Sequence record: OX457022
Source: Escherichia phage vB_EcoP-CC1
DNA length: 44,532 nucleotides
Reading direction: 5' to 3' (one strand)
Part shown: in pieces, positions 12,612 through 44,519 of the stretch
Numbering within the stretch: the first letter of the stretch is position 1
Layout of the letters: every line of letters begins with the position of its first letter
The notes under the pieces: model-generated
Databases searched by the model: none
The model's input: only the letters and a program-made list of their open reading frames with translations
What the model was told of the DNA's origin: nothing
Translations under genes and position numbers: made by a program

Positions 12612-15554
12612 ATGGCAATTGAACGTCAAGCTGTACAAGGACTAGAAAGAGTACAGTCAAGGGGCGCGCCAACACCTATGTCTTTCACACCACGACAAGT
12701 GAGTATCTCAGGGGGCGCGGATGCCTCCGGTAGTAGATTTTTGGAAGACTTAGTAAACGCTGCAAGTAGTGTGGCTGATGTCACTACTGCTATCCTTAAT
12801 CAGCAAGTAGAAGACGATAAGGTTCGCCAGATGGATAGGGCTTTATCTGGCATGATGCCTTCTGAGGATGCTACGGTAGGTGGTGCTCGTGCGCATATGC
12901 TGGTTAGTTTACAAAATGATGTAATCGCACAGACAACTGCGCTACAAGTAGAAGCACAGCGATTTCAAGGTAGTGACGAGGATTGGGAAAACTATGTAGT
13001 TCAATCTCGTAATGAGGTACAAAATAGGTTATGGCAAAGTTATCCAGAGCTTCGTGGTGACAAAGATTCTATGAGACTTGTCACTAACGCGTTCATGGAG
13101 CAGCAACCTAGAATTACTGCAACTAGAGCAGAGGCTAAACTTCGTCAAGAAGAAGAAGCACGAATGCAATCTATGCAGTCTCGTATTATCATGGCTACAC
13201 GGGACGTAGCGCCAGATGCCACTGGTGCAGCACTCATCCAGTTACAAAAAGAAGCACTGGCGATGGGTCTTAGTAAACCTGAGTTTGATCAGATGGTTGC
13301 TAAGATTGCATCTGACAGAGCGGCAGTAGGAGATGATAGTCTTATTCAGGGAACCAAAGCACTGGTGGATGATAAGGGTGTCTCTTTGTATGACCGTGTT
13401 GGTGCTTTGCAAACTGGAGAGATTCAAGCTAACAGAGCTTGGGCTGCGCAGAATCAGGTTGCCCTCTTTGAGAAGAAGGATGCAGCTATAAAGGCATTCG
13501 ATGCAGGGCAACTTACTCGTGAAGAGTTACTTCAGGTGATGCAGAATCACAATGAATTGACTGGTGGTACTGCTTGGTCTGATAGCGAGATCAAGGCTAT
13601 CTTCGATAGGCAAGCTAAGGCTAATGCAGAGAAAGCAAAGCTCGAAGATCTTATTGCACGAGGTGAATCTGGGTCGCCTTTAGGTTTACAGGATATTAGT
13701 AAGGATGACAGAAAATCCTATGCTGAAGCCTTAGTTAGTACCTACACTAAGTTGGCAGAAGATGAAATTGCCCGTACTGGTGCAACGGGAGAACAGGCTG
13801 AAGCTATTCGCGGTAGGTATGAGCAGATGCGTTATCTTAAATTAGGGCAACAACTTATTGAAGACCCAATCATTAAGGAAAGATATTCGTCGCTTATGCA
13901 ATTATCCTCTGCCAACCTTAAAGATATGAATGTTGAGCCTGAAGCATTACAGACCATCATGCGAGCGCGGGACTCTATTCCAGAGGATGCACGTCGTGCT
14001 GTCATGGGAGACAAAGAGTATGCCTTTGTAGAGAACTACGACCTAGCAACTCGCATGGGGTATAACGCAGGTCAAGCTATTGAGTTTGCACAGAATGCCT
14101 CTCGTGGAGAGAAGCTACAAGGTTCTGTACTTAAAGAACTGAATGATGATGTAGATGGAGTTGTAAGTGATGTGGCAGGAGGTAGTTGGCTTACTCGTGG
14201 CGATAATATGAGTGAGATGGGTCGTGACATTATGATGGAGGAGGCAAGTACAATTGCGAGAGCAATGAAGGTTGCAGGTCATAATAATGACACGATTAAA
14301 CGTCATCTTAAATCCTATTTGACGAGCCAGTATACACAGTTATCAGAGGGCTTCTTCACCCAAGGTGTTCTGGTGAAAGGTGATGTACGAACATTAGGTG
14401 ACACTATAGGAGTAAACCAGAATGACCTTCCTATGGCGCTACGTCAATATATGGATAACAACAAGCAAGCACTTCTTGATGCATCAGGTGGCTTAGAAGA
14501 GGGTGATTTGTATTTTGATGTAGATGCGCAGCGGGGACTCTTTACCATACGTGCAGGGTCTGGTCGTGTACCTGTTACGCAGGCAATGCCTTTGTCTGAA
14601 ATCAAAGGGCAGTCCTTGCTTAAGCAAAGATATGATGCAGAGGTTAAAGCCCGTGATGAGGGGCGTAAGAATTTTGAAGCACAGCAAATGAGGATGTGGG
14701 GCGCAGGTGGCTACCAAGCACAACCACCTGCAAAGACTACAGCCAAAACTGTAGGCTCCCGTGGGATTGCTGACTTCTTAATGTCACCTGCCTTTGCATC
14801 AGGCGAGAATCTACCAGCAAACTTTGAGTTTGGATATAAGAGGAATAATATGGACTTCTACAATTATGTAGCCAAGATGGAGAATAATGCCAATGTGGGC
14901 TTTGACCGAGTAGCTGGTGTTTATACACCATACAAAGATGCACATGGTCAATCTGTCGGGTACGGTCACTTCCTTACTACTGAAGAGAAGAAGAACGGAT
15001 ACATTATGATTGGTACAGAGAAAGTGCCATTCACTCCGGGACAATCTCAATTAACACCAGAACGAGCCATGCGCCTTCTACAGCAAGACTTGAAGAGTCA
15101 TGTGCCAAACACTTCAGGGTGGGCTGTTCCATTCGAAGAGATGCACCCAGGTGTTCAGCGTGGCCTTATGGACTTGTCCTATAATTTAGGCAAAGGAGGT
15201 ATCCAGAATGCACCTAAAGCCTATGTTGCGTTTAAGGCTGGCAAGTTTACTGATGGATTTATTGAGATGTTATCTACTGCATCTACTGAAGGTAAGCGTA
15301 GTACTGGGTTGTTGGTTCGTAGAGCAGAAGCATACAACCTTGCACAGAGTGGAGGTGCTATTCCTAAGATTAGTGAAGTAGAGACACGAGCCGATGGGTC
15401 TATGTATGTTAAGTTTGCAGGACAGATGTCAGAGGCTTTCGTAAATAAATCAATCTACAATCAGATTGGTAAGGATGGATGGCTGCAAGTGTACCCTCCA
15501 AAACAAGGTGTACTTGCACCTAACACCAAGATTGGTAGAATCAAACTAAGCTAG
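12612..15554 (+). CDS. Internal virion protein B with a C-terminal lysozyme-like (GH24-type) domain
   Basis: It occupies the gp15 position. The C-terminus carries MENNANVGFDRVAGVYTPYKDAHGQSVGYGHF, which fits the T4-lysozyme-like E...D...T/GYGH pattern. Confidence 0.75.
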   Translation: MAIERQAVQGLERVQSRGAPTPMSFTPRQVSISGGADASGSRFLEDLVNAASSVADVTTAILNQQVEDDKVRQMDRALSGMMPSEDATVGGARAHMLVSLQNDVIAQTTALQVEAQRFQGSDEDWENYVVQSRNEVQNRLWQSYPELRGDKDSMRLVTNAFMEQQPRITATRAEAKLRQEEEARMQSMQSRIIMATRDVAPDATGAALIQLQKEALAMGLSKPEFDQMVAKIASDRAAVGDDSLIQGTKALVDDKGVSLYDRVGALQTGEIQANRAWAAQNQVALFEKKDAAIKAFDAGQLTREELLQVMQNHNELTGGTAWSDSEIKAIFDRQAKANAEKAKLEDLIARGESGSPLGLQDISKDDRKSYAEALVSTYTKLAEDEIARTGATGEQAEAIRGRYEQMRYLKLGQQLIEDPIIKERYSSLMQLSSANLKDMNVEPEALQTIMRARDSIPEDARRAVMGDKEYAFVENYDLATRMGYNAGQAIEFAQNASRGEKLQGSVLKELNDDVDGVVSDVAGGSWLTRGDNMSEMGRDIMMEEASTIARAMKVAGHNNDTIKRHLKSYLTSQYTQLSEGFFTQGVLVKGDVRTLGDTIGVNQNDLPMALRQYMDNNKQALLDASGGLEEGDLYFDVDAQRGLFTIRAGSGRVPVTQAMPLSEIKGQSLLKQRYDAEVKARDEGRKNFEAQQMRMWGAGGYQAQPPAKTTAKTVGSRGIADFLMSPAFASGENLPANFEFGYKRNNMDFYNYVAKMENNANVGFDRVAGVYTPYKDAHGQSVGYGHFLTTEEKKNGYIMIGTEKVPFTPGQSQLTPERAMRLLQQDLKSHVPNTSGWAVPFEEMHPGVQRGLMDLSYNLGKGGIQNAPKAYVAFKAGKFTDGFIEMLSTASTEGKRSTGLLVRRAEAYNLAQSGGAIPKISEVETRADGSMYVKFAGQMSEAFVNKSIYNQIGKDGWLQVYPPKQGVLAPNTKIGRIKLS

Positions 15555-15557
15555 TGG

Positions 15558-15601
15558 TATACTCAAGGTTTGTCTCACATGTGAGACATGCCTTTATGAA
15601 T
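15558..15601 (+). promoter_or_regulatory. RNase III-like hairpin with a palindrome apex (TATACTCAAGGT-tTGTCTCACATGTGAGACAt-GCCTTTATGAAT)
   Basis: It is intergenic. The flanks are identical to those of the hairpin at 41961-41996 and resemble the T7 R0.3 segment CTCAAGGGT...GCCCTTTATGAT (recalled). Confidence 0.55.
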
Positions 15602-15621
15602 GACACTGACTAGGAGGTAAC

Positions 15622-18600
15622 ATGGTTGATAGTATTAACCAAAACTGGGTGGCGGTGACTCAACGCAAGTTACCGCCTACCTTCTCTCAAATTGCTGAAG
15701 CTGAGCGTAAGGCTGAAGCCCAGAGAGCTAATGATAAAGTGTTTCAAACAGCATTAGAAAGTGAGTGGGCTTTATATGGCGGACAACGTGCCTATGAACG
15801 CCACACTACAGAGTTTGCTGAACAAGAAGGCTATGAAGTGCCTGAGTCAACTAAGGATGAGTTATCCAAGTTGTATGGGTATGAAATAGCGCAAGACATA
15901 GTTAAGAATGTAAAGTCTCCAGAAGAGTTGCAATTCCGTATGTCTAATGCTGCTGCTGATAAAGACAGAGCAGACATCTTAGCACGTAATGGTTTCACGG
16001 GTTTCAGCGCGCAGATTGCTGCTGGCATCCTTGACCCTGTAGGTTGGGCTGCATCCTTAGTGGCTGCGCCTGTAGCGGGTGCTGTCAAAGTAGGTAGGCT
16101 AGGTAGGATTATCAAGACGGCTGCCTTATCAGGTGCTGAAAATGCTGCATTAGAAGCTATACTTGCACAAGGTGATTACCAGCGAGGGGTTGATGATGTA
16201 CTGGCTGCTGCCGGATTTGGTATGATTATGGGCGGCACTATTGGTGCTGCAACCAGAGAGCGCATAGCCAGTGCTGGTTCTCGTACAGCGGCAGAACGAG
16301 CAGATGCTGTAGTTGATGACTTGGACACTGTAGTAAAAGGTGCTGATGAATTTGACTCGTCTGCGGCTCGTGCTGTACGTGAAGCTATGGAATATGACGC
16401 GTATATGGCAGCGCGTAATTACGAACCACTTCGTGCAAGAGAGGTAGATGCAGACATGGCGATTCTGTCTCACACAGACAATTTGAAAGCCAATGCATCG
16501 GTAAGGATGAGTGCTAGTGAGAAGGGGCAACTGAAGAAGCAGATACGTCAGCTTGAAGCAGAAGCAGCAACACTTAAAGGGAAGAAGATAGACACTGTAG
16601 CGGAAGCTGCGGCTGCTAAGGGTGCACCTAAATCTGCTGCTGACAGATTAGATTTGGATGTTCAGAAGAAAGCATTAGCACGTAGATTTGATGAACCACT
16701 GGCAGACTTACAAGCGCGTCTTGATGAGTTGAATGCTAAATTGTCTCGTGTAAACAATGTAGGCAAAGCCAAGGAAGAGCTTAAGAGATTCTCATCGCTA
16801 TCTCGTGAAGAGCAAATAAAGGAGTTAGGTCTAGACGCACCAGTGCGCAAGGTAGAGATGACCCGTGCCGTGCGAGATGCAATTGACGCAATCCGTGCCG
16901 AGCGTAAGAAGACGCCTACCGAAATACATGCTGAACAAGTCGCAGAAGATGCAATTAAGCAAAGGGCAGACGACTCTGTTGGTGCTAAACGTGTTGAAGG
17001 TTCAGAGATTGCAGGTGAACAGTTTGACCTATCTAAAAACATGGAAGAACTTATGGATGACTTGGCACGAGAAGCATACCAGTCAGAGGTGCGGCCTATT
17101 AATCTTAAGGGTTTAGGTTCAGTGTCTTCTGTGATTCTTAACTCAGAGAATCCTGTGTTCCGAGGCCTAGGTCTTCGTCTGCTTGAAAATGCTCAAGGTG
17201 GTGCATATCAAGGTAAGACAGCTTCTATCTTATCAGATGTGTATGGCAACCTTATTCGTCATGCAGAACGTAACAGATACAATGATGGCTTCTCTCAGTT
17301 CATCAAAGATAATAACCTACGTGCGGTAGACTATCTTAACCCTGCAACGACAAGGGATTTCAATAATCAGATTTATACAGCAATTGTTCGTGGCATACCA
17401 GAAGATACACCTCGTGGTGTTAAACTGGCAGCCGAAGGTATTGCAGATAAGCTCAAGAAAGCACTGGAGATTCGTAAGCAAGCAGGTGAGCGAGGCTTCG
17501 AGGATGTGCAATCTGCTAAAGATTATATTCCCGTTATCTACGATGGTATCAAGATCACAGAGGCAGTTAACAAGTTAGGTAGTAGTGAAGCTGTCATTCA
17601 CTTGCTATCTAAAGGGTATCAGACAGGCAAGTACAAACTTGGCAAGAAAGCTGCTGATGCACTAGCCAAAGTTCAGTATATTCGCGCATCTGACTCCACC
17701 CTCTCTAGTCGTGTTGCATTCGATAGGGTGGTATCCCAGCAGCAGCAGGCTCAATTGATTGAGGATCTGAAGAAAGCAGGAGTACCAGACCATATCATTG
17801 ATAATTTCATTGAAGGTACGGAATTAGCAGAAATGGCTGAATCGGTATCCAATCGAGCTAAAGCTAGTATGGGTATTAATACGCAAGCCGAATATGGCGG
17901 TTTGAAGGTGCAGGATTTGCTTAATACAAACGTAGGCGAGCTAGCTGAGAACTACGGCAAAGAGGCAGCAGGCGGTGCTGCATTAGCTGCCATGGGTTTC
18001 CCCACTCGCCAGTCTGTGCTGAATGCGATAGATGCCGCAGAACGCGCAGGTCGTAATATGGCGGGGTCAAATGCTAAGGCAATCAAACAGCTTAGGGCTG
18101 AGGCAGAAATGCTCAGAGATGCCGTTAAGCTCATTTACGGCAACACTATTGACGCCGACCCTAACTCTGGAATTGTCAGGGGCACTCGACGTGTCCGTGA
18201 GATTACAGGCTTGTTACGATTGGGTCAAATGGGCTTCGCTCAGATACCAGAACTGGCACGTGCAATCTCTAAGATGGGATTAGGTACTGTGCTGAAGTCC
18301 ATACCTGCCACGAAGTTCTTACGTTCAAGGGCGGCTCGTAAGGGAGGAACAGCTCAAGGTGAATTACTTGAACCTGAACTGCGAGAAATGGAGGAACTCT
18401 TAGGCTATATCGGGGAAGATAACTGGCTTACAGGGTGGAACGTCCGTCATGATGAGTTCGGAGAAACTGCTGATAACCTAGGTAAGCTGTCTGCTATTAT
18501 TGATAACGGATTAGCTATGGGTAGTAGAATCAACACAATACTCTCTGGATTTAAAGCAGTACAAGGTGGTTCAGAGAAAATTGTAGCTCGCTCTATCAAT

Positions 18601-19425
18601 AAGAGATTAAAGCAGCACTTGATGGGTGAGAGACAATTACCTAAAGCAGACCTTGAAGAAGTAGGCCTAAGTGAAGATGTCATGAAAAGACTTAAGCGTC
18701 ACTTTGATGACAACCCTCTGTACGCTGAGTACAATGGAGAAAAAGTTCGTATGCTGAACTTTGATGCTATGGAGCCAGACCTGAGAGAGACAGTGGGTGT
18801 TGCTGTGCGAAGAATGTCAGGCCGTCTTATTCAACGTAACTTCATTGGCGATGAAGGTATCTGGATGAATAAATGGTGGGGTAAGGCATTAACGCAGTTT
18901 AAGTCATTCTCTATTGTCTCTATTGAGAAACAGCTAATCCATGATTTACGAGGTGATAAGATTCAGGCTGCACAGATACTTGCATGGTCTACTTTACTAG
19001 GTTATGCATCTTATGCACTACAGATGCAGATGCAAGCGATTGGTAGGGAGGATAGAGACAAGTTCTTGAGGGATAAGTTTGACACACAGAACATCGCTAT
19101 GGGTGTCTTTAATAAACTTCCACAAGTTGCAGGCTTTGGTTTAGCTGGTGATGCTTTGGCAACCTTTGGCCTAATGCCAGACTCCATGATGCAAGCACCG
19201 GGACGCATGGGTTTCCGTCAGCAAGGCTTTGGGGATTTGGTAGCAGGTGCTGGTGTAATAAGTGATACAGTTAATTTGTCACAAGCACTGGTTAAGTATG
19301 CCAGTGGAGACGATGATGTCTCTACGAGGCAGTTGGTAGACAAGGTTCGTCGCCTTGTTCCTTTGGCAAATACTATTGGTGTGGGTCAGATGACTAAAGC
19401 CAGTGTAGATTTATTGGAGGATTGA
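15622..19425 (+). CDS. Internal virion protein C (gp16-position, 1267 aa)
   Basis: Called from size, synteny and the SD TAGGAGG. Confidence 0.8.
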   Translation: MVDSINQNWVAVTQRKLPPTFSQIAEAERKAEAQRANDKVFQTALESEWALYGGQRAYERHTTEFAEQEGYEVPESTKDELSKLYGYEIAQDIVKNVKSPEELQFRMSNAAADKDRADILARNGFTGFSAQIAAGILDPVGWAASLVAAPVAGAVKVGRLGRIIKTAALSGAENAALEAILAQGDYQRGVDDVLAAAGFGMIMGGTIGAATRERIASAGSRTAAERADAVVDDLDTVVKGADEFDSSAARAVREAMEYDAYMAARNYEPLRAREVDADMAILSHTDNLKANASVRMSASEKGQLKKQIRQLEAEAATLKGKKIDTVAEAAAAKGAPKSAADRLDLDVQKKALARRFDEPLADLQARLDELNAKLSRVNNVGKAKEELKRFSSLSREEQIKELGLDAPVRKVEMTRAVRDAIDAIRAERKKTPTEIHAEQVAEDAIKQRADDSVGAKRVEGSEIAGEQFDLSKNMEELMDDLAREAYQSEVRPINLKGLGSVSSVILNSENPVFRGLGLRLLENAQGGAYQGKTASILSDVYGNLIRHAERNRYNDGFSQFIKDNNLRAVDYLNPATTRDFNNQIYTAIVRGIPEDTPRGVKLAAEGIADKLKKALEIRKQAGERGFEDVQSAKDYIPVIYDGIKITEAVNKLGSSEAVIHLLSKGYQTGKYKLGKKAADALAKVQYIRASDSTLSSRVAFDRVVSQQQQAQLIEDLKKAGVPDHIIDNFIEGTELAEMAESVSNRAKASMGINTQAEYGGLKVQDLLNTNVGELAENYGKEAAGGAALAAMGFPTRQSVLNAIDAAERAGRNMAGSNAKAIKQLRAEAEMLRDAVKLIYGNTIDADPNSGIVRGTRRVREITGLLRLGQMGFAQIPELARAISKMGLGTVLKSIPATKFLRSRAARKGGTAQGELLEPELREMEELLGYIGEDNWLTGWNVRHDEFGETADNLGKLSAIIDNGLAMGSRINTILSGFKAVQGGSEKIVARSINKRLKQHLMGERQLPKADLEEVGLSEDVMKRLKRHFDDNPLYAEYNGEKVRMLNFDAMEPDLRETVGVAVRRMSGRLIQRNFIGDEGIWMNKWWGKALTQFKSFSIVSIEKQLIHDLRGDKIQAAQILAWSTLLGYASYALQMQMQAIGREDRDKFLRDKFDTQNIAMGVFNKLPQVAGFGLAGDALATFGLMPDSMMQAPGRMGFRQQGFGDLVAGAGVISDTVNLSQALVKYASGDDDVSTRQLVDKVRRLVPLANTIGVGQMTKASVDLLED

Positions 19426-22400
19426 TGAGTTATACATATACAGACCATGTAGCTAATGGCTCACAGGTTACATTCCCTTTTCGTTTTGCAGGCAGAGATA
19501 AGGCATACATTAGTGCGACAGATGTCCAAGTGGGTTTTGTAGAAGCAGGCACTTGGCTGCCAGCAACAGGTTGGACGCTAAGTGGCACCAATCAGATCAC
19601 TTTCTTAACCCCACCGACAGAAGGTAAACAAATACGAATCAGACGTATTGTAGATAAAATAAACCCATATGCTTACTTCGAGCGGGGTAATGTTTTAGAT
19701 ATTAACTCTTTAAATAACTCATTCATTAAGAACCTGCAAGTCAGTCAAGAAATCCTTGATGGCTTCTTCCCAGAAGGTTTCTACTTCAAGACAGACTTAG
19801 ACATGGGTGGTCATAAGATCATAAACCTACATGAAGGTTCGGAGTCAGGTGATGCTGTAAATTATGATCAGTTTAAAGAGTTATCAGACCGCGTTAATGA
19901 GATTGAGTCAGATTTAACAGGTTTATCTCACAGAACAGTACCTATGTATTATATTGCAACTGGCGGAGAGTCACGTTGGGAGATCGGTCACTGGACTTTC
20001 GACGCTGCAATATTATTTATTAATGGTATATTCCAGAACCAAAACCTAGGAGCTTTTACCATCAGCAACAACGGTTTTAACTTTGCAGAACCATTGCAGA
20101 AGGGGGATGAAGTATATGCCCTTGTAGGAAGCCGCATTGCAGCACCCGATGAGTATGTAACAATCTCTGACTTGAAAGACCCAGATAAAGCATGGAGGCT
20201 AATTGGACGTAAGTACCCATTTGCGACAGATGGAACTTTTATGTCAAAAGTGGTACATGATGTAGACTACTCCAATATCTTCATTGGAGCATCAGGACTT
20301 AGTCAAGGCTTCTGTATTGTAGACACTCCGCAAGGTGCTCGCATGTTCTTCCATCAACCTATCCCAAGCACTAATAAGGTTCGTTTCGTTGAAACAACCT
20401 TTAACCCTGAAGGGGATAATGAAAATCCTTCTGTTATTTCATTCAGCCAGGAACTGGATGATATTGGACACCAGACTGTGTGTGGTGTATATGAGGCGGG
20501 GGGTGTGCGTTTGTACACCTTGAGTGCAGATGAAAAATCTTATTATATCATAGATTGGTTAGGTAATAATACGTCTAATGCACATATGCGTAAGGTGCAG
20601 ATCCCTACGGAGGGTATCTACTCTAAGGACTTATTTGTCTCAGTGGGCATGTCAGAAGATACTAAAACGCTGGTATTCCATGCAACCACCAATACTCAGG
20701 CTTTTGGTAACAAGGATGATGCGAGAGCTATTTACCTCTTCGATAGAAAAACATTGGATTCAACCTCAACTAGAGGTCTTAAGCGTAGATTCGAAGTAGG
20801 AGCACCTGCTGCACCAGATATGGTCTTCCAAGGGGTTGCTTGTGATGACCGCTTCTTGTATATATATCAGGGATATAATGGTGTCCTGCTGTCTCACAAG
20901 ATCTCCGTCTTCACCCTCTCAGGGGAGCATGTACGGGATATTCCCGTTGATAGTGTGCGTGTAAAATATGGAGAAAGGATGTATGGTGACGAAACTTTAG
21001 GGTATCCTGTATTGCAGGAACCGGAAGGTTTGGCAATGTATAAAGGCAAACTTTATATGTTGTGTATGGATTTCTGGTACAAGAATGCAAGTGTAGTTAC
21101 TTTCGCTGGCAGGACTTTTGCTACAAGGAAATCTTCAGCGTTTTCTGGGTACAGTCCATTACAAGCATCATATTGGACACCTACGAACCTAATACCACCT
21201 ACGGGTGCACCAGAGTATAACAAGACTGCTACTTATTCCTGCTCTAATGCTACTAAGCTCAGTAAAGCTATTGTTAGCTTAGAAATAGATGATGGCACAG
21301 GCTTCCCTGCAAGTGTTGGGTGTTCTTTGCCAGAGAGTAGCGCCAGTGTATACCTAAACAACCGAGCGATGAATATGGCTATTGGCCCGAATGAAAACTT
21401 CCAGTTTGGGGTATTTCACCAGAACCTACAGTCATACAAAAACCTGTTACAGCTCAATAGAGAGAACCCAAATACGGATGGATCAGCGGCTGTGTGGAGG
21501 TTGTTCGGAGGTGCGTTCACAGATGACATTCAGAATGAAAGATTTGTTCAGATTAAGCATAGACTTAATCCCACACAAGATGCCATGGAGCTTCGTGCGG
21601 ATGTTGACCTTACGAGCGGTGGTGGGATTAACTTGTATTCTATGAACGACTCTGCCTCTCCTGGTCGAGTAAGGCTATATTGTACTGACGGGTATTCTTA
21701 TTGGTCAGCTCTACTGAGTCCTGTATCCCCATCTTTTCACCCTGATCAAGATAAGACTCTAAACTTAGGTACAGCAAACAACCGTTGGAACCTAGTCCAT
21801 TGTCAAGGTATCCGTATCATCTCTAACGACGAGTTACAGAAGCAAGTCTTTCTTGAAACTACCCGTAAAAAAGGTGCACTACAGATCTCCACTTCCGGCA
21901 ATCTAGGGGTGTGGGATAGTAGCGCAGGTACTTATGTTGTGGCAACCAGACCTGATGGTACAGGCTTTTCACAGGTAGAGATGAGCTTCAAAGGTGATGT
22001 TTTTCCTGAAATAAATAATACTTACAATTTAGGTCGTGAGAATAAGGCATGGGCTAATGCCTACTTTCAAAACGCACCGACTGTTGTCTGTGATGCCAGA
22101 CTTAAAACAGATGCTAGGGAGTTAACAGACGCAGAGAAATCCGCATTCTTAGAGATCTCTAAACTTCCGGCAGTTTGGCAATGGCTTGCTAAACTGGAAG
22201 TAGAAGGAGAGGATGCCCGCTTACACTCTGGATGTACTGTCCAAGCTGCTATCTCGGTTATGGAGAAACATGGCCTAGATTGGACTAAGTATAGTGCTTT
22301 CTGTTATGACAAATGGGATGCCAAGGAGGCTGTCTATGATATAGTGGATGGTAAGGCTATCCTTGTTGAAGAGGCAGTTGAGGCTGGCGACCGTTATCGT

Positions 22401-22508
22401 CTTCGTAGAGAAGAGCTGATGTGGTGGTGCATGAAGGCACAGAATGCTTGGATTGAATCTATTGAGGGGAGGCTGGCGAAATTAGAAGATAAACTCAAGG
22501 AGGTGTAA
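19425..22508 (+). CDS. Tail fibre/tailspike 1: T7 gp17-like N-terminal anchor, unassigned central domain, C-terminal S74-type intramolecular chaperone
   Basis: The N-terminus MSYTYTDHVANGSQVTFPFRF...GHKIINL...GDAVNYDQF fits the T7 tail-fibre N-terminal pattern. The C-terminus NLGRENKAWANAYFQNAPTVVCDARLKTD fits the G....W...Y.......SD.RLK junction, but with Cys in place of Ser. Confidence 0.85.
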   Translation: MSYTYTDHVANGSQVTFPFRFAGRDKAYISATDVQVGFVEAGTWLPATGWTLSGTNQITFLTPPTEGKQIRIRRIVDKINPYAYFERGNVLDINSLNNSFIKNLQVSQEILDGFFPEGFYFKTDLDMGGHKIINLHEGSESGDAVNYDQFKELSDRVNEIESDLTGLSHRTVPMYYIATGGESRWEIGHWTFDAAILFINGIFQNQNLGAFTISNNGFNFAEPLQKGDEVYALVGSRIAAPDEYVTISDLKDPDKAWRLIGRKYPFATDGTFMSKVVHDVDYSNIFIGASGLSQGFCIVDTPQGARMFFHQPIPSTNKVRFVETTFNPEGDNENPSVISFSQELDDIGHQTVCGVYEAGGVRLYTLSADEKSYYIIDWLGNNTSNAHMRKVQIPTEGIYSKDLFVSVGMSEDTKTLVFHATTNTQAFGNKDDARAIYLFDRKTLDSTSTRGLKRRFEVGAPAAPDMVFQGVACDDRFLYIYQGYNGVLLSHKISVFTLSGEHVRDIPVDSVRVKYGERMYGDETLGYPVLQEPEGLAMYKGKLYMLCMDFWYKNASVVTFAGRTFATRKSSAFSGYSPLQASYWTPTNLIPPTGAPEYNKTATYSCSNATKLSKAIVSLEIDDGTGFPASVGCSLPESSASVYLNNRAMNMAIGPNENFQFGVFHQNLQSYKNLLQLNRENPNTDGSAAVWRLFGGAFTDDIQNERFVQIKHRLNPTQDAMELRADVDLTSGGGINLYSMNDSASPGRVRLYCTDGYSYWSALLSPVSPSFHPDQDKTLNLGTANNRWNLVHCQGIRIISNDELQKQVFLETTRKKGALQISTSGNLGVWDSSAGTYVVATRPDGTGFSQVEMSFKGDVFPEINNTYNLGRENKAWANAYFQNAPTVVCDARLKTDARELTDAEKSAFLEISKLPAVWQWLAKLEVEGEDARLHSGCTVQAAISVMEKHGLDWTKYSAFCYDKWDAKEAVYDIVDGKAILVEEAVEAGDRYRLRREELMWWCMKAQNAWIESIEGRLAKLEDKLKEV

Positions 22509-22702
22509 TGATAAACTCCGAACTGGTAGATAATGGTGTGAAGCTGGCGCCACCTGCATTAGTCTCAGGTGGGTACTTCCTCGGTATCAGTTGGGACAAT
22601 TTGGTACTGATAGCAACATTCATTTATACAGTGTTGCAGATTGGCGATTGGTTCTATACTAAATATACAATATGGAGGAATAAGCATGAGCGTGCACAAT
22701 AA
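22508..22702 (+). CDS. Holin (T7 gp17.5-like)
   Basis: It is 64 aa with a hydrophobic core and basic tail. YTVLQIGDW compares with T7 gp17.5 YTVVQIG (recalled). It lies between the fibre and terminase genes. Confidence 0.6.
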   Translation: MINSELVDNGVKLAPPALVSGGYFLGISWDNLVLIATFIYTVLQIGDWFYTKYTIWRNKHERAQ

Positions 22703-22985
22703 ACATGCAGCCACAGAGGATGAAGTAGGCATCCTTCATGGCGCTATTACGAAGATGTTTAATAAGAAAGCACAGGCTATACTGGACACTATAGAAGAAG
22801 ACCCTGATTCTGCTATGCACTTAGTGTCAGGTAAGGATATTGGAGCCATGTGTAAGTGGGTTTTAGATAATGGCATTACTGCAACCCCTGCTGCACAGCA
22901 GGAAGAATCTAAGTTGTCTAAGCGTCTCAAGGCTATCCGAGAGGCGTCCAGTGGTAAGATCATTCAGTTTACTAAGGAGGATTAA
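22686..22985 (+). CDS. Terminase small subunit (gp18-position)
   Basis: GGAGGA precedes the ATG at 22686, directly upstream of the large terminase. Confidence 0.55.
   Translation: MSVHNKHAATEDEVGILHGAITKMFNKKAQAILDTIEEDPDSAMHLVSGKDIGAMCKWVLDNGITATPAAQQEESKLSKRLKAIREASSGKIIQFTKED
22777..22799 (+). promoter_or_regulatory. Intragenic near-consensus phage promoter (CTATACTGGACACTATAGAAGAA)
   Basis: Positions -13 to +5 are identical to the consensus, and it lies upstream of the large terminase. Confidence 0.5.
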
Positions 22986-24880
22986 TGGCTAAGGCAAGAG
23001 AATCACAAGCGGAGGCTCTTGCCAGATGGGAGATGCTACACGAGTTACAGCAGACCTTCCCTTATACGGCAGAAGGTTTGCTTCTCTTTGCTGATACAGT
23101 TATTCATAATTTAATTGCAGGTAGTCCTCATCTGATTCGTATGCAGGCAGACATCTTGAAGTTCCTATTCTATGGGCACAAGTATCGCCTCATCGAAGCG
23201 CCCCGTGGTATCGCTAAAACTACGCTGGCAGCAATCTATACGGTGTTCCGTATCATTCATGAGCCTCATAAGCGTATCATGGTTGTATCCCAAAACGCCA
23301 AGCGAGCAGAGGAAATTGCAGGTTGGGTGGTCAAAATCTTCCGAGGATTGGACTTCCTTGAGTTTATGCTACCGGATATATATGCTGGCGACCGTGCATC
23401 CGTCAAGGCATTTGAGATTCACTACACGTTACGCGGCAGCGATAAGTCGCCTTCTGTATCCTGTTACTCTATCGAAGCAGGAATGCAGGGTGCTCGTGCT
23501 GACATCATTCTAGCAGATGACGTTGAATCTATGCAGAATGCGCGTACAGCAGCAGGTCGTGCATTACTTGAGGAACTGACAAAGGAGTTTGAATCTATCA
23601 ACCAGTTTGGTGATATCATCTACCTTGGTACACCTCAGAACGTCAACTCAATCTATAATAACCTTCCGGCTCGTGGTTATTCCGTGCGCATCTGGACTGC
23701 TCGCTATCCTTCGGTAGAACAGGAGCAATGCTATGGTGATTTCCTTGCACCTATGATTGTGCAAGATATGAAGGATAACCCAGCATTGCGAACAGGCTAT
23801 GGTCTGGATGGCAACAGCGGCGCTCCTTGTGCGCCTGAAATGTACGATGATGATGTCCTGATTGAGAAGGAAATCTCACAGGGTGCTGCTAAATTCCAGC
23901 TTCAGTTCATGCTTAACACTCGCATGATGGATGCTGACAGATACCCATTGCGCCTAAACAATCTAATCTTCACCTCATTTGGTACAGAGGAAGTCCCTGT
24001 GATGCCTACGTGGAGTAATGATTCCATTAACATCATTGGGGATGCACCTAAGTATGGCAACAAGCCTACAGATTTCATGTATCGACCTGTGGCACGTCCA
24101 TACGAATGGGGTGCTGTTACACGCAAGATTATGTATATTGACCCCGCTGGTGGCGGTAAGAACGGAGATGAGACTGGTGTAGCCATCGTATTCCTGCACG
24201 GCACATTCATTTATGTGTATCAGTGCTTTGGTGTACCGGGCGGATACCGAGAATCTTCCCTGAATCGCATTGTGCAGGCCGCAAAGCAGGCAGGGGTTAA
24301 AGAGGTATTCATAGAGAAAAACTTTGGTCATGGCGCGTTTGAGGCGGTAATTAAGCCATACTTTGAACGAGAGTGGCCTGTGACACTTGAAGAGGATTAC
24401 GCAACTGGTCAGAAAGAACTCCGCATCATTGAGACGCTAGAGCCATTGATGACCGCGCATAGGCTCATCTTCAATGCGGAAATGGTTAAGTCAGATTTCG
24501 CTTCAGTACAGAACTACCCGCTTGAACTGCGGATGTCTTATAGTCTGTTCCATCAAATGTCGAACATCACTATTGAGAAGAACAGCCTTAGGCATGATGA
24601 CCGCTTAGACGCTCTGTATGGCGCTGTGCGTCAATTAACTTCCCAGATAGACTATGACGAGGTTACTCGAATTAATCGCCTCAGAGCGCAGGAGATGCGC
24701 GATTATATACAGGCGATGAATACACCTAAACTTCGTCGGGCTATGCTGTACGGCGATTATGGTGATGAGCGAAGAACAACCAACACCTCCTTAGCGATGC
24801 AGCAGCGGGTTTACGGTCAGAATTGGAGGAGCCGCTCTGGGTCTAGAAATACACTTTCCTCAAGGATTTCAAGGATTTAG
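22985..24880 (+). CDS. Terminase large subunit (gp19-like)
   Basis: It is 631 aa with a Walker A-like EAPRGIAKTT and ILADDVE, plus a strong SD. Confidence 0.9.
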   Translation: MAKARESQAEALARWEMLHELQQTFPYTAEGLLLFADTVIHNLIAGSPHLIRMQADILKFLFYGHKYRLIEAPRGIAKTTLAAIYTVFRIIHEPHKRIMVVSQNAKRAEEIAGWVVKIFRGLDFLEFMLPDIYAGDRASVKAFEIHYTLRGSDKSPSVSCYSIEAGMQGARADIILADDVESMQNARTAAGRALLEELTKEFESINQFGDIIYLGTPQNVNSIYNNLPARGYSVRIWTARYPSVEQEQCYGDFLAPMIVQDMKDNPALRTGYGLDGNSGAPCAPEMYDDDVLIEKEISQGAAKFQLQFMLNTRMMDADRYPLRLNNLIFTSFGTEEVPVMPTWSNDSINIIGDAPKYGNKPTDFMYRPVARPYEWGAVTRKIMYIDPAGGGKNGDETGVAIVFLHGTFIYVYQCFGVPGGYRESSLNRIVQAAKQAGVKEVFIEKNFGHGAFEAVIKPYFEREWPVTLEEDYATGQKELRIIETLEPLMTAHRLIFNAEMVKSDFASVQNYPLELRMSYSLFHQMSNITIEKNSLRHDDRLDALYGAVRQLTSQIDYDEVTRINRLRAQEMRDYIQAMNTPKLRRAMLYGDYGDERRTTNTSLAMQQRVYGQNWRSRSGSRNTLSSRISRI

Positions 24881-24881
24881 T

Positions 24882-24904
24882 ATTTACTGGACACTATAGG
24901 AGGA
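24882..24904 (+). promoter_or_regulatory. Phage RNAP promoter (ATTTACTGGACACTATAGGAGGA)
   Basis: It is a consensus match that begins 2 nt after the terminase stop. Confidence 0.85.
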
Positions 24905-25037
24905 AGACCAAGAGAGTAAAAGGAATATTATAGGATAATATAGGATTACCTAGGTTATATAGGTGTACCTTAGTATGGGTGTACTCCTGTACACCTATTC
25001 TTACTTGCTATTTACTTATACGTATAAGGAGTATTAG

Positions 25038-25319
25038 ATGGCTAATGATTATAGTAATCAGCCCTTAACTGGTCGCTATGACCGTAAACAGATTACACCA
25101 ACTAGTGAAGCATTAATGCTCCCTGTTGTTACAGAGGAGTCTATTAAGAAGAAAGCCAATGTTATCAATGATGCAACCAAATCTGGTAAACAGAAAGCAG
25201 CAATGGTGTGTCGTCCTGTAGGTGGCACTCTTGAGATTGCCATTGCTACTGGTAGCAAAGAGGATGCAGATTGGTTGTCTGTTAAAATGGATGGCGTTGG
25301 TTTTATTACACCGGCTTAA
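25038..25319 (+). CDS. SGKQ-module protein A (93 aa), unknown function
   Basis: It has a strong SD and is paralogous to the next two ORFs (see findings). Confidence 0.7.
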   Translation: MANDYSNQPLTGRYDRKQITPTSEALMLPVVTEESIKKKANVINDATKSGKQKAAMVCRPVGGTLEIAIATGSKEDADWLSVKMDGVGFITPA

Positions 25320-25336
25320 TAAAAGGAGAAGATAAT

Positions 25337-25624
25337 ATGTCTAAGTATGGCGATGCAGGTACGACTACTGGTCAGGCTTTTCGTGTAAAAGCAGTACAAA
25401 CTATTGCAACTGCAATCCCTATGCCTATCGTGGCAGAAGCTGACCTTAAAAAGAAAGATCATCCAATTAATATTGAACACCTATCTGGTAAGCAGAAAGG
25501 TGCTATGGTGGTTGTAGATAAAGGAGATAATAGCCTTTATATTGCTATTGCACGTGGTTCTGCACCAACTGACCAGTGGGATGTAACTACTATGGAAGCT
25601 GTACCTGTAACACCAGGAGCTTAA
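25337..25624 (+). CDS. SGKQ-module protein B (95 aa), unknown function
   Basis: It has a strong SD and is paralogous to proteins A and C. Confidence 0.7.
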   Translation: MSKYGDAGTTTGQAFRVKAVQTIATAIPMPIVAEADLKKKDHPINIEHLSGKQKGAMVVVDKGDNSLYIAIARGSAPTDQWDVTTMEAVPVTPGA

Positions 25625-25625
25625 T

Positions 25626-26315
25626 ATGCTGGGAGTAACAGGACAACGCAATAAGAATGTAGCCACCAAAGTAGTGGCTGATTTAGCTACTGCTGCTACT
25701 GTCGAGGAATTACGAGACACACATAACTCTATTAACCGTGCTGACCTTTCTGGTAAACAAGAAGGTTCTGTTGTTCTTGTTAAGAAAGAGGATGGCAACT
25801 ATTCTATCTTTGTAGCAACAGGTAGCAAGCCTACTGATGTTTGGAAAGAGTTGTCTCCAACAATACCAGAGCAAGAGATGCCTGCTGAATATATTGATAT
25901 GGTTGATATTCAAATTCATCAAGACTCTGCAAGTAACTTACGTATGGATTCTTCTCGCACGAGCTTAATACAAACACCAATGTGGGATACTGAAGGTGAA
26001 TTGCTATTCCGTAATACCCTGAGCGCAACATGTTCTTGTACCATTCTTGCTGACGGTGCATCTGGTGTTCGTCAGGATTTTAATTTTAAGATTAATGGAA
26101 TCTTAGAGCAAGAAGAGCAGTATTATGACATTGACACTCTTATGTGCTCTATTCATTCTGCAACAACAACTAATGGTCTTACACTGTGTATGCCAGATGT
26201 TAAGAGCGCAAAGACCAATAAGATGGTAGTAAAGGTCGACACTATGCAGTCATTAACAATGAGTTTTGATCTTAACTTCCTTGTTGAATGGACGTCACCT
26301 ACGAGGTTACTATAA
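25626..26315 (+). CDS. SGKQ-module protein C (229 aa: module plus a C-terminal domain of about 140 aa), unknown function
   Basis: The SD is AGGAG. The N-terminal 75 aa are paralogous to proteins A and B. Confidence 0.7.
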   Translation: MLGVTGQRNKNVATKVVADLATAATVEELRDTHNSINRADLSGKQEGSVVLVKKEDGNYSIFVATGSKPTDVWKELSPTIPEQEMPAEYIDMVDIQIHQDSASNLRMDSSRTSLIQTPMWDTEGELLFRNTLSATCSCTILADGASGVRQDFNFKINGILEQEEQYYDIDTLMCSIHSATTTNGLTLCMPDVKSAKTNKMVVKVDTMQSLTMSFDLNFLVEWTSPTRLL

Positions 26316-26659
26316 TGCTAAACGAATACTTCAAGCGTAAAGAATTTGCTTGCCGTTGTGGGTGCGGTACATCCACTGTTGATGCTGAGTTACTACAGGT
26401 AGTAACAGATGTGCGTGAGCACTTTGGTGCTCCTGTGGTTATTACTTCTGGTCATCGTTGCGCCAAGCACAATGCTAATGTAGGTAGAGCTAAGAACTCC
26501 ATGCATCTTACTGGTAAGGCTGCTGACATTAAGGTCACTGGTGTTAGCCCAATGGAGGTACGTGCGTACCTATGCAATAAGTACACTGATAAGTATGGCA
26601 TTGGTGCTTATCCTACTTTTACACATATCGACGTTAGAGGTAACAAAGCACGATGGTAG
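26315..26659 (+). CDS. Endolysin, zinc peptidase M15 family
   Basis: The start is a TAATG overlap. FACRCGCG...SGHRCAKHN...MHLTGKAADI...FTHIDV gives the H/D/H zinc ligand pattern of Peptidase_M15. Confidence 0.85.
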   Translation: MLNEYFKRKEFACRCGCGTSTVDAELLQVVTDVREHFGAPVVITSGHRCAKHNANVGRAKNSMHLTGKAADIKVTGVSPMEVRAYLCNKYTDKYGIGAYPTFTHIDVRGNKARW

Positions 26660-26767
26660 GTTGTGTTGCATGGTGTGAACGCATGGTTGCTAAGGCTTCA
26701 GAGGAAGGCAACTATGCAGATTGGCAGAACTATTCGACTTTATTAGCTCAATGGAAAGGGAGGTGCA

Positions 26768-26917
26768 ATGAAAAAGCTGTTTAAGTCTAAGAAGGTTGTA
26801 GGTGCACTAGTTGCACTAGCAATTGCCCTTGTTTCTGTAGGACTTGGTGTAGACCTTGGTTCTGGCACTGAGGGGTCTGTGACAGATGTAGTTTGCCAAG
26901 TAATTACTTGTGAATAA
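26768..26917 (+). CDS. 49-aa single-pass membrane protein (holin/antiholin-like or lysis accessory)
   Basis: GGGAGG precedes the ATG. The sequence is MKKLFKSKKVVGALVALAIALVSVGLGV.... It is not in the ORF track because it is under 60 aa. Confidence 0.5.
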   Translation: MKKLFKSKKVVGALVALAIALVSVGLGVDLGSGTEGSVTDVVCQVITCE

Positions 26918-27131
26918 ATTTCTTGAAGCACTTGCAGGTCTTATTGGCCTGCTTGTTGCAGCTAAGAAGAAACAGGAAGAGAAGGAGGCACAAAGTGAAG
27001 CGAATCATGTTGGTGATGACCCTGCTGATTGGTTCGCTAATCACTTCCGGGTGTCAGCAGGCGTTACCAGAGAAGAAGGGTGTGAAGCCGCTGAAGCCGA
27101 CGCTGACGGCAGTTTACGAAGTGGACGATAA
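26910..27131 (+). CDS. Putative i-spanin (Rz-like)
   Basis: It starts at a GTG. An N-terminal TM segment (FLEALAGLIGLLVAA) is followed by a charged region, and it overlaps the lipoprotein ORF. Confidence 0.45.
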   Translation: MNKFLEALAGLIGLLVAAKKKQEEKEAQSEANHVGDDPADWFANHFRVSAGVTREEGCEAAEADADGSLRSGR

Positions 27132-27204
27132 GGTCTGCTTCAGTAAGACTGACGCTACACAATTAGGTTTGTATATTCTTTCGCTAGAACGCGGGTATAA
27201 TTAA
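26995..27204 (+). CDS. Putative o-spanin (Rz1-like lipoprotein), overlapped architecture
   Basis: GAAGGAGG precedes the GTG at 26995 (ATG alternative at 27007). The signal peptide plus lipobox is MLVMTLLIGSLITSGC, and the mature part is proline-rich. Confidence 0.6.
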   Translation: MKRIMLVMTLLIGSLITSGCQQALPEKKGVKPLKPTLTAVYEVDDKVCFSKTDATQLGLYILSLERGYN

Positions 27205-27233
27205 TACATATCTTTATGTATCAATGTCCTACG

Positions 27234-27256
27234 ATTTACTGGACACTATAGAAGGA
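27234..27256 (+). promoter_or_regulatory. Phage RNAP promoter (ATTTACTGGACACTATAGAAGGA)
   Basis: It is a consensus match upstream of the second fibre gene. Confidence 0.85.
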
Positions 27257-27333
27257 GAGATAGTGCCGTTCATTTGAGCGGCCTATTACTAGCCAATCTT
27301 CATGGTGAGGGTTGGGAAGTAATAGGAGATAAC

Positions 27334-28857
27334 ATGGCTAAACTAACGAGAGTCACTGACTGGCTTGTTAAGGTAAAGTCCAGACTCACTGGTGCAGTAG
27401 AGCGACTGCTTGAAGATAAGTTAAATGACACGGTTAGTGTTAAGGACTTCGGTGCTAAGGGTGACGGTGTGACAGACGACACACAAGCATTTGCTGCCGC
27501 CTCAGCCGCATCGCCTCAAGGTGTTTATGTGCCTGACGGAACATATTTATTACCAGAAGATATTAATGGCAGGTTCTATGGTTCTGGTAAACGCATCAAG
27601 GCTGTAGGTGATGGTGGTATTCCTTTTACCAATGTAGCTCAGTCACATAGTAACCTAATATTAGGATATGATGCTGCAAAGGATTACACGGACGAAGGGA
27701 AAGGCAACCAATTAGTATTACTTGGCCCAAGCTCCGGTCGTAACCTTACCACTGGTACTAACTCCATTGTGGTAGGTGTTGGTGGCCTATCGGGTGATAC
27801 ATTAGAAGATGCACTAACAGATAAATCACCTTTCACTGGTACAGAGATTATTAGCATTGGTATCAATGCTCTTAAGAAAACTACCACTGGTAACAACATG
27901 ATTGGTATTGGTCGTGATGCCCTGAACGAGTGTAAGGATGGAAGATTCAACGTAGCTATAGGTATGTCTGCTTTGCAGCAGCTACACTCTGGTGAGGCTA
28001 ACGTAGCAATAGGGCGTTCAGCCGGTATGCGTACTGGCATCTTCACTAACGAAGATGGTGTACGATTAGGCTATACAAAATGTAGCGGTAATACCTTAAT
28101 AGGTAACGCGGCTGGTCGTGAATTGAAGTCAGGTAATCATAACACCGCCGTAGGCAATGGTGCTATGCGAGGTGTCAGTTCTGATATTAATCCATATACT
28201 GGCACTCTAGAGGGTAATTTTAATACAGCTATTGGTGTTGATACCTTAAACTCCTTAGCATCTGGTGAGTTGAACACCATGATTGGCGCAAGGGCTGGGC
28301 GTAAATTACCTAGTGGCTCTGGTAACATCTTCATCGGTGCGGATGCAGGTGCAGGTATTAACATTGAAAAGTCTAACACTCTCATTATTAACAACCACAC
28401 TGGCTTACCTTTCGTAGAAGGTATTATGGATGGTGCTCAGAGTGAGAATAACTACTTACGTGTTGATGGAAGTGTAGCACCTCAGATTGATAACACAAGA
28501 ACTTGTGGTCAGTCTAGCCGTAGATGGCAGACTGTCTTTTCTACCAATGGTGTTATCCAGACATCGGATGGACGATGCAAGGATGTCTACGATATTGCCA
28601 AGACGGAGTACATGGCTGGTCTAGAGTTATCTTCTAGTATGATTAAGTTCAAATGGACAGATACTAAAGAAGATAAGTATCACTTCGGTTGTCTGGCACA
28701 AGAGGTCATGCTGATTATGGAGAAACATGGGTTAAACCCTCTGGATTATTCCCTCGTTACCTATGATGCTGAAGCAGATATGTATGGTGTTAACTATGCA
28801 GAATTGTCTTGCTTCTGTATCGCAGCAATGTCCAATCATGTACTAGGCAGTGCGTAA
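27334..28857 (+). CDS. Tail fibre/tailspike 2 with a C-terminal S74-type chaperone
   Basis: AGGAG precedes the ATG at 27334. VKDFGAKGDGVTDDT is a pectate-lyase-3-type motif. About 9 repeats fit the N.(A/I/V)IG..A(L/G) pattern. The C-terminus reads RRWQTVFSTNGVIQTSDGRCKDV...YHFGCLAQEV. Confidence 0.8.
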   Translation: MAKLTRVTDWLVKVKSRLTGAVERLLEDKLNDTVSVKDFGAKGDGVTDDTQAFAAASAASPQGVYVPDGTYLLPEDINGRFYGSGKRIKAVGDGGIPFTNVAQSHSNLILGYDAAKDYTDEGKGNQLVLLGPSSGRNLTTGTNSIVVGVGGLSGDTLEDALTDKSPFTGTEIISIGINALKKTTTGNNMIGIGRDALNECKDGRFNVAIGMSALQQLHSGEANVAIGRSAGMRTGIFTNEDGVRLGYTKCSGNTLIGNAAGRELKSGNHNTAVGNGAMRGVSSDINPYTGTLEGNFNTAIGVDTLNSLASGELNTMIGARAGRKLPSGSGNIFIGADAGAGINIEKSNTLIINNHTGLPFVEGIMDGAQSENNYLRVDGSVAPQIDNTRTCGQSSRRWQTVFSTNGVIQTSDGRCKDVYDIAKTEYMAGLELSSSMIKFKWTDTKEDKYHFGCLAQEVMLIMEKHGLNPLDYSLVTYDAEADMYGVNYAELSCFCIAAMSNHVLGSA

Positions 28858-44225: not shown

Positions 44226-44519
44226 ATGCCGACTATTGAAGAACGTTTCCTGATTCACGTAGACTTCTCACCCATACATCTTGGTTATCTTATCACTATT
44301 CTCTTAGGAGAGGAGGTTTATCTACATAATTACCTTATACCTGAATATGTATGTTTTAGGGATAAGATACACCCGCTTACTTGGGCACAAGAGTGGCTGC
44401 GTGAACATGTGCTGAAGGAGTGGCCTACATGCGACCAAACTTCGACTTCGGAGCTACAGTATCGGAAGACAATAATCTCATCCTGTGGCCGACTGAAGGT
44501 GAGAGAATCGCTCTCATAG
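44226..44519 (+). CDS. Hypothetical 97-aa protein overlapping the exonuclease start
   Basis: GGAG lies 8 nt upstream. The 3' 91 nt overlap the exonuclease CDS, whose start is at 44429 (equivalent to 24). Confidence 0.4.
   Translation: MPTIEERFLIHVDFSPIHLGYLITILLGEEVYLHNYLIPEYVCFRDKIHPLTWAQEWLREHVLKEWPTCDQTSTSELQYRKTIISSCGRLKVRESLS

Follow-up and report, generated by a model that had tools for sequence, protein, structure and literature searches.

How are two receptor-binding proteins mounted on one phage tail when the first of them is itself built onto the tail adaptor? This question is raised by the 44,532-nucleotide (nt) stretch of DNA analysed here (the window; Escherichia phage vB_EcoP-CC1, record OX457022), which encodes two fibre proteins with C-terminal S74 chaperones, referred to below as fibre 1 and fibre 2. 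Both fibre genes showed 100% nucleotide identity to Escherichia phage vB_EcoP-CC2 (OX638290.1), a record classified under Autographiviridae, Molineuxvirinae, Vectrevirus, and the phage of the window is called CC2 throughout. CC2 was obtained from pig faeces and has a narrow, E. coli ST131-specific host range (PMC10433417). The original prediction, made by a model from the sequence alone, was that the dual receptor-binding architecture at this locus differs from the adaptor model of SP6 and K1-5. We propose that the locus equips an SP6/K1-5-like podovirus with an anchor-branched adsorption apparatus of two receptor-binding proteins, and we give this explanation as a whole a probability of about 0.72.

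Architecture of the fibre pair

The fibre 1 gene occupies the gp37 position, flanked by the genes for the large internal virion protein and the holin. The expectation that a gp17-like anchor is fused here to a large receptor-binding part was borne out by a Pfam match (Table 1), and the N-terminus of T7 gp17 in the PDB also matched this anchor. Residues 1 to ~245 align with K1-5 gp37 at 44% identity, and amino acids (aa) 1-242 matched the Kp7 tail adaptor (PDB 7Y22_e, E 1.4e-57). The anchor ends in a short coiled neck (aa ~131-165, with a sub-threshold Pfam match to YadA_stalk), and the single T4gp10-like docking domain that follows, domain A, corresponds by homology to the middle domain found in the adaptors of K1-5 and Kp7. 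When aa 1-265 were modelled with AlphaFold2, beta domains were predicted with confidence at aa 1-79 and at aa 160-240. Among 24 long-form homologues with differing C-terminal bodies, conservation ends at aa ~241-248. The short adaptor described for SP6 and K1-5 was confirmed, the gp37 proteins of K1-5, SP6 and ACG-C91 each being 320 aa long. The second domain of the K1-5 and SP6 gp37 (domain B, aa ~255-320) is absent from fibre 1.

The second S74 fibre had been placed at the right end of the genome behind its own promoter, and this too was confirmed. The window is circularly permuted, and since synteny with K1-5 puts the natural right end at ~29718, fibre 2 is the product of the right-end gene. 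A 22-nt promoter of the SP6/K1-5 phage RNA polymerase type stands 79 nt upstream of the fibre 2 ATG, and a ribosome-binding site precedes this ATG, which is also the annotated start. An in-frame TTG at 27274 was considered as an alternative start and rejected, the stretch concerned being a conserved promoter-proximal leader common to K1-5. Nucleotide homology to K1-5 (~85%) is continuous from the end of the fibre 1 gene across terminase genes, lysis genes, promoter and leader up to codon 5 of fibre 2 (27347), where it breaks off until 28928, so that one CC2 gene replaces the gp46-gp47 pair of K1-5.

Table 1. Features of the two fibre genes; nucleotide positions refer to the window
Feature	Residues (aa)	Position	Strand	Basis or remark
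Fibre 1 coding sequence at the gp37 position; from N- to C-terminus anchor, docking domain, propeller, stalk, tip, S74 chaperone	1-1027	19425..22508	+	CAI9889080.1 of OX638290.1, ATG start agrees
T7 gp17-like tail anchor	3-151	19431..19877	+	Pfam PF03906 Phage_T7_tail, E 2e-8
Single T4gp10-like docking domain (domain A)	~168-245	19926..20159	+	proposed fibre 2 seat
Five-bladed beta-propeller, receptor-binding domain (predicted)	~274-550	20244..21074	+	predicted structure
Beta-rich stalk or "tower"	~551-769	21075..21731	+	pLDDT (model confidence score) <50, beta strands predicted
Putative relic pre-chaperone junction, SFHPDQDKTLNLGTANNRWNLVHCQGIRIISNDELQK	770-807	21732..21845	+	junction hidden Markov model (HMM)
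T5 pb1-like distal tip, including the real pre-chaperone junction (aa 857-894)	~816-888	21870..22088	+	
S74 intramolecular chaperone of fibre 1	889-1027	22089..22505	+	Pfam PF13884 aa 889-951, E 1.1e-8
SP6/K1-5-type phage RNA polymerase promoter serving fibre 2, ATTTACTGGACACTATAGAAGG		27234..27255	+	13-copy family in window
Fibre 2 coding sequence	1-507	27334..28857	+	open reading frame (ORF) and GenBank coding sequence
MAKLTRV docking peptide (proposed) and helical neck	1-~35			
Pectate-lyase-like start	34-149			Pfam
Solenoid repeats of ~17 aa	~143-335	27760-28340	+	
Pre-chaperone junction of fibre 2	~380-416			
S74 chaperone of fibre 2	411-507			Pfam S74 aa 411-467

This arrangement was compared with the "anchor-branched" systems defined by Latka et al. 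2019, namely G7C, KP32 group A and KP34 group B (PMC6872550). The first receptor-binding protein of KP34 group B is 530-948 aa long and combines a T7 anchor with a T4gp10-like fragment at aa ~187-243, while the second is encoded 5-8 genes downstream and starts with a conserved heptapeptide (PMC6872550). In CC2, likewise, a T7 gp17-type anchor and then a T4gp10-like domain stand in the same fibre 1 polypeptide, ~780 further residues make up a propeller, a stalk, a T5-like tip and an S74 chaperone, and fibre 2 has no anchor and starts with a short conserved peptide common to its group. What marks a free adaptor is missing: fibre 1 is too long at 1027 aa, it has no domain B, and two separate spikes are not encoded. 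As far as genes can describe it, the CC2 layout is the known anchor-branched architecture and fits it feature by feature.

The closest parallel in gene order and domain positions is with KP34 group B (KpV41, phiKpS2, SU552A), where the first protein is also encoded after the internal virion protein gene and the second after the terminase and lysis genes. The heptapeptide there is MALxxLV, whereas CC2 has MAKLTRV; the body there is a beta-helix depolymerase, whereas CC2 has a propeller and a T5-like tip; and genus and host differ, CC2 being a Vectrevirus on E. coli ST131. With K1-5, K1E and SP6, CC2 shares an anchor and middle docking domain that are homologous (44-48% identity) and encoded at the same genome position, and with K1-5 it further shares the right-end promoter, the 5' leader and the MAKLT start of gp46. 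In contrast to CC2, however, the K1-5 gp37 ends at 320 aa, has a second docking domain and serves two separately encoded spikes, whereas CC2 lacks the gp47 gene along with domain B and carries a 780-aa receptor-binding module of its own on the adaptor polypeptide. The logic proposed for CC2, a docking domain on one protein and attachment of its partner there, also applies to the pairs gp66/gp63.1 of G7C and gp76/gp75 of Pollock. Among cultured phages, Pollock gp75 comes closest to the CC2 propeller-stalk-tip-chaperone module (50% identity over 99% of that part), but it places this module on the docked partner, behind a Tail_spike_N / gp63.1-type N-terminus, whereas in CC2 it is on the anchored partner. 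The contrast with the SP6/K1-5 model that had been predicted is therefore real, but it is not a departure from known models, the anchor-branched layout being one of them.

An exhaustive search with fibre 1 aa 1-245 returned 67 cluster representatives that matched through the docking domain. The fused form (at least 450 aa, median 828) made up 44 of these, including 18 of the 20 closest, so that fusion is largely the norm among relatives, although clustering inflates the count of diverse long forms. The short form, on the other hand, dominated in IMG/VR (9 of 11 usable loci), a small sample in which a single-protein query gave 4 loci and a profile query 21. "Fused as the norm" therefore holds for the diversity of sequence clusters and not necessarily for counts of genomes. 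Five short adaptors checked directly (K1-5, SP6, ACG-C91, L015 and L016) were 319-326 aa long, the remaining cultured Vectrevirus adaptors share only ~47-48% identity with the N-terminal part of CC2 fibre 1, and most cultured Vectrevirus isolates appear to have the short form. The fused form is common and already described, and is unusual only within Vectrevirus; the same pairing of an anchor-fused fibre with a second protein was found in Klebsiella phage KL01 and in the metagenomic locus L022. No published analysis of the CC2-group fibre apparatus was found, the isolation paper (PMC10433417) and the R4596 genome survey being without one. The findings on the CC2 fibres do not overturn current understanding; they tie the "free adaptor" model of K1-5 and the "anchor-branched" model of Klebsiella phages and G7C together within one genus.

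Proposed docking of fibre 2

We propose that six fibre 1 trimers would each plug into the tail via the anchor, and that the single T4gp10-like domain would hold one fibre 2 trimer through its MAKLTRV N-terminus. The covalently attached module of fibre 1 would take the place of gp47 and of its docking site in K1-5, the second such domain of gp37. The C-terminal chaperones would assist the trimerisation of both fibres and then cleave themselves off.

Docking on T4gp10-like domains is an established mode in G7C, CBA120 and K1-5 (PMC6872550). For K1-5, as relayed in PMC6872550 from Leiman 2007, the heptapeptide of gp46 was assigned to the middle of gp37 and the undecapeptide of gp47 to its C-terminal part. 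The K1-5 proteins start with MAKLTKP (gp46) and MIQRLGSSLVK (gp47), and fibre 2 with MAKLTRV. No MIQRLGS-type gene was found in CC2, which has only one right-end receptor-binding gene. Across the genomes compared, domain B was present only where the right end encodes two receptor-binding proteins, including one of MIQRLGS type (K1-5, SP6, L015 and L016), and it was absent where a single right-end receptor-binding protein is encoded (CC2, KL01, L017, L020 and L022). L018 also lacks domain B; its contig ends before the right-end gene, and the near-identical relative L019, which has a single one, stands in for it. The right-end protein starts with xLT(K/R)(V/L) in CC2, KL01, L017 and L022. These observations support docking of fibre 2 on fibre 1 aa ~168-245, and fibre 2 probably attaches to fibre 1 in the virion. 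Judged from the sequences, the K1-5 adaptor logic is retained, one docking domain and the gp46-type MAKLT start having been kept. Docking domains and separately encoded fibres vary together in number, which supports the scheme of domain gain and loss of Latka et al. (PMC6872550).

Several points weigh against this explanation. Past residue 10 the neck of fibre 2 resembles that of K1-5 gp47, which is thought to bind the missing domain (54% identity between fibre 2 aa 4-55 and the gp47 N-terminus), so the heptapeptide argument comes down to five or six residues. The MAKLT residues also lie inside a recombination arm, and their conservation could be genetic and not functional. The correlation of domain B with the number of receptor-binding proteins covers about ten genomes. 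As regards fibre 1, aa 551-800 were modelled with low confidence, and C889 replaces the canonical Ser nucleophile of the chaperone, which leaves self-cleavage of fibre 1 as a prediction.

The first two of these points bear on an alternative in which fibre 2 docks elsewhere, for example at the nozzle, at the tail tube or at a more distal part of fibre 1, and MAKLT has been kept only as a shared recombination arm. The K1-5 homology, unbroken between the lysis genes and codon 5 with the promoter included and ending there, fits such an arm, and beyond residue 10 fibre 2 is like gp47 and the Kp7 fibre and unlike gp46. The PDB entry of the Kp7 tail fibre (7Y5S) matched fibre 2 at both ends, and the fibre 2 N-terminus is best described as a hybrid, since its gp46-like start gives way to a gp47/Kp7 fibre-like sequence from residue 11. 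Yet KL01, L017 and L022 are distant from CC2 at the nucleotide level and nevertheless combine the xLT(K/R)(V/L) start with an adaptor part that has domain A only. Moreover, the second receptor-binding protein of R4596 has kept the first 52 residues of fibre 2 on an unrelated body without S74, a swap that left the N-terminus in place, and the established docking on T4gp10-like domains (PMC6872550) also speaks against another site. We consider docking elsewhere quite improbable.

That fibre 2 is a dispensable or vestigial remnant of a K1-5-type cassette and that fibre 1 alone sets the host range is very improbable, for although second receptor-binding proteins can decay to stubs, as in KP34 group C and K1E, and the host range of CC2 is narrow (PMC10433417), fibre 2 is an intact 507-aa ORF with a promoter, a ribosome-binding site and a complete S74 chaperone, its protein is 94.5-98% identical in four other phages, and the body found on the same N-terminus in R4596 is different but equally intact.

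In the body of fibre 2, an "Nx(x)hIG" repeat of some 17 residues recurs about eight times (aa ~143-335), which suggests a beta-solenoid shaft and not an obvious catalytic beta-helix. Close relatives of this body were found only in the five CC2-group phages.

The fibre 1 module and its internal junction

The central domain of fibre 1 had been described as a possible beta-propeller or beta-helix at aa ~250-560. Modelling of aa 245-801 from an alignment of 16 sequences gave a pLDDT of mostly 80-95 for aa ~273-549 and poor values past that point. The closest fold in structural comparison was the five-bladed propeller of phi11 Gp45, and further matches (YjiK, olfactomedins, glutaminyl cyclases and GH43/32/68 enzymes) were all to five-bladed propellers. 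The Pfam family PF21311 (phage propeller platform) matched below its gathering score (16.7-18.4 versus 23.7 bits), with sub-threshold matches in 5 of 16 relatives. The model, the structural matches and these sub-threshold hits together support a beta-propeller fold for the domain, which carries EPEGLAMYKGKLYM at aa 531-544. The propeller guess was thus supported and the extent was not, as the unit common to other phages reaches aa ~675-806.

We propose that the propellers would recognise a glycan on the cell surface, probably in the lectin manner of phi11 Gp45. The latter and the NF5 receptor-binding protein share only ~14-15% sequence identity with the fibre 1 propeller, and phi11 Gp45 is a siphovirus baseplate protein that binds teichoic-acid GlcNAc and has no S74 chaperone. 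That the propeller is instead a glycoside hydrolase or depolymerase, and fibre 1 an enzymatic tailspike and not a lectin-like platform, seems to us rather unlikely.

The stalk, which was modelled as a monomer, is probably an intertwined trimer; it is colinear with GA-1 gp12 aa ~430-587 and with the spikes of PGN829.1 and Gally. The module from aa ~257 to the C-terminal end was found on several distinct attachment scaffolds. Specifically, it follows a Tail_spike_N / gp63.1-type N-terminus in gp75 of the N4-like phage Pollock (50% identity to the CC2 module) and in the metagenomic P0005 (45%), a PF12571 tail-collar N-terminus in E. coli prophage tail proteins (~50%), a P22 head-binding domain in the spike of the P22-like phage Gally (~24%, propeller) and a phi29-type appendage N-terminus in gp12 of Bacillus phage GA-1 (~21%), and it also occurs in the spike of the Gamaleyavirus PGN829.1 (~24%, propeller). 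The fibre 1 protein itself is 99% identical to the R4596 "tail fiber protein", whose GenBank record (2019) already mentions the Pollock similarity and the T7 tail domain.

The stalk and S74 chaperone named in the original prediction were both recovered, with a T5-like tip between them. Residues 816-1017 of fibre 1 aligned with the L-shaped tail fibre pb1 of T5 (PDB 4UW8, E 5.8e-24), and by BLASTP the same residues matched the tip and intramolecular chaperone of pb1 (aa 1190-1394) at 34% identity; neither a propeller nor a second junction motif is present in pb1. Many other phage fibres matched from aa ~811-856 onward (41-49%). The fibre 1 chaperone also matched 3GUD and 3GW6 in the PDB, and the Pfam S74 matches exceeded the gathering score in both fibres (fibre 2, E 1.2e-4). 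The cleavage motif of fibre 2 is the canonical SDGRCK. In fibre 1 the predicted autocleavage residue is C889 (22089-22091, motif CDARLK), where the usual residue is Ser. This Cys is also found in R4596 and P0002, and Ser occupies the position in P0001, P0003 and P0004; it could represent a natural Ser-to-Cys swap of the nucleophile or a cleavage-deficient variant.

A degenerate internal copy of the pre-chaperone junction had been noticed upstream of the real one, with module stacking by recombination as its suggested origin. The copy is real, although the nucleotide range first given for it starts ~15 nt off. A junction HMM was built from nine pre-chaperone junctions, none of them from the fibre 1 family, and gave only two matches in fibre 1, at the real junction (aa 860-894, 20.4 bits) and at aa 770-789 (11.8 bits), whereas the best of 3000 shuffles of aa 1-855 scored 7.2 bits. 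The copy precedes the real junction by 88 aa in all relatives examined (Pollock gp75, P0001 to P0005, P0026 and P0035). Because the spacing is kept in relatives, the copy is an old feature; a recent recombination in CC2 was accordingly rejected as its origin, the same spacing in Pollock gp75, P0005, P0026 and P0035 excluding it.

A propeller-stalk-junction-S74 protein, GA-1 gp12, is a colinear homologue of fibre 1 across aa 285-806 and again in the chaperone, with E values of 9e-22 and 2e-16 by BLASTP and of 4.9e-23 by Foldseek. It differs in having one junction and no T5-like tip between stalk and chaperone, as well as a phi29-type appendage N-terminus and a Gram-positive host. Its functional junction, ...GAINTSDERHK, aligns onto ...IRIISNDELQK of fibre 1, and the Pfam S74 start of GA-1 gp12 (aa 620) falls inside its junction motif. 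This GA-1 segment can also be aligned to fibre 1 aa 857-1013, where the real junction and the chaperone lie. T5 pb1 and many other fibres are homologous to fibre 1 only past the internal motif, from aa ~811-816 onward, and a second junction copy, looked for in pb1 as a possible general feature, was not found there. Stacking at the junction is thus supported, since GA-1 gp12 is colinear with fibre 1 up to the motif and has its working cleavage site there. On the best and simplest reading, an older fibre once ended at the internal copy, and this remnant of its C-terminus was extended by a T5-like tip and chaperone. In terms of mechanism, a T5-like tip with its chaperone would have been joined onto a GA-1 gp12-like fibre at the chaperone junction, leaving the vestigial junction at aa 770-807, and the finished module would since have moved between at least five attachment scaffolds. 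The original idea of stacking therefore stands, but not as an event in CC2: the sequences of Pollock gp75 and the prophage fibres indicate that it is ancient and common to the whole module family.

The fixed 88-aa spacing, held across relatives at 45-50% identity, implies purifying selection, and only the first half of the internal motif scores against the junction HMM. Both observations would also suit a recurrent structural joint of such trimeric fibres, folding like the pre-chaperone segment and kept for structural reasons, which arose by internal duplication or convergence and is no relic of recombination. This alternative is unlikely in view of the GA-1 gp12 alignment, which sets the S74 cleavage site TSDERHK against SNDELQK and matches the real junction too, and of pb1 and the other fibres, whose homology starts only after the motif, with no second copy in pb1.

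If the junction copy is a relic, a bolder reading may be entertained, in which fibre 1 carries two receptor-binding elements, three lateral propellers and a T5 pb1-like tip, the latter acquired with its chaperone by stacking. With fibre 2 docked, each tail vertex would then present three distinct binding surfaces, and the S74 chaperone may use a Cys nucleophile. We regard this reading as tentative and doubtful. Were it true, the pre-chaperone junction would be a general recombination joint for the distal extension of fibres and not for swapping alone.

Read against GA-1 gp12, the relic junction clearly illustrates the lengthening of a fibre at the chaperone joint, which is a small new point. 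Together with the match between docking domains and fibre number and the Cys at the nucleophile position of the chaperone, it is among the most useful of the new points. For host-range engineering of an ST131-specific phage, natural cut-and-paste points are offered after aa ~245 of fibre 1, at its two chaperone junctions, and in fibre 2 after codon 5 or around codon 52.

Genome setting and further observations

Block by block, the identity to K1-5 differs along the genome. The region 12570-22500, which holds the internal virion proteins and fibre 1, is patchy at 65-80% identity only, and the terminase-to-lysis block at 22500-27350 shows ~85%. The CC2 group is therefore a mosaic, in which the fibre 1 gene, including its anchor, is of a different lineage. 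The gp36-like protein of CC2 has 1267 aa, as in SP6, and its K1-5 counterpart 1061 aa. The N-terminus of fibre 1 is closest to long-form proteins, including those of the Klebsiella phages KL01 and 6939 (51-57%).

Positions 1-127 of the window are identical to 44406-44532, which looks like an assembler overlap of a circularised contig and not like a phage terminal repeat.

Between the two fibre genes, a 229-aa ORF (25626-26315) is inserted relative to K1-5 and SP6, with a gap in nucleotide homology at 25598-26311. Its N-terminal part matches the same PHROG family as the small upstream ORFs at 25038-25319 and 25337-25624, which suggests that the three are paralogues. The family is labelled "acetyl-CoA acetyltransferase", which looks like a propagated misannotation; no Pfam or PDB match was found for any of the three. 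In KL01 the gene at the corresponding position, directly after the large terminase gene, is named "head fiber protein".

An 18-nt sequence with a perfect palindrome, GTCTCACATGTGAGAC, occurs in eight copies in the window (15570-15587, 30041, 35391, 35572, 36372, 37940, 39153 and 43688), of which at least four (35391, 35572, 39153 and 43688) stand shortly upstream of a phage promoter or gene start. These copies are candidate RNA-processing or terminator hairpins.

Lastly, Raoultella phage vB_Ro_P3a (PQ197423.1), isolated on Raoultella ornithinolytica, showed 97.7% nucleotide identity to CC2 in fibre 1 and 92% in fibre 2, which hints at a surface glycan common to both host genera.

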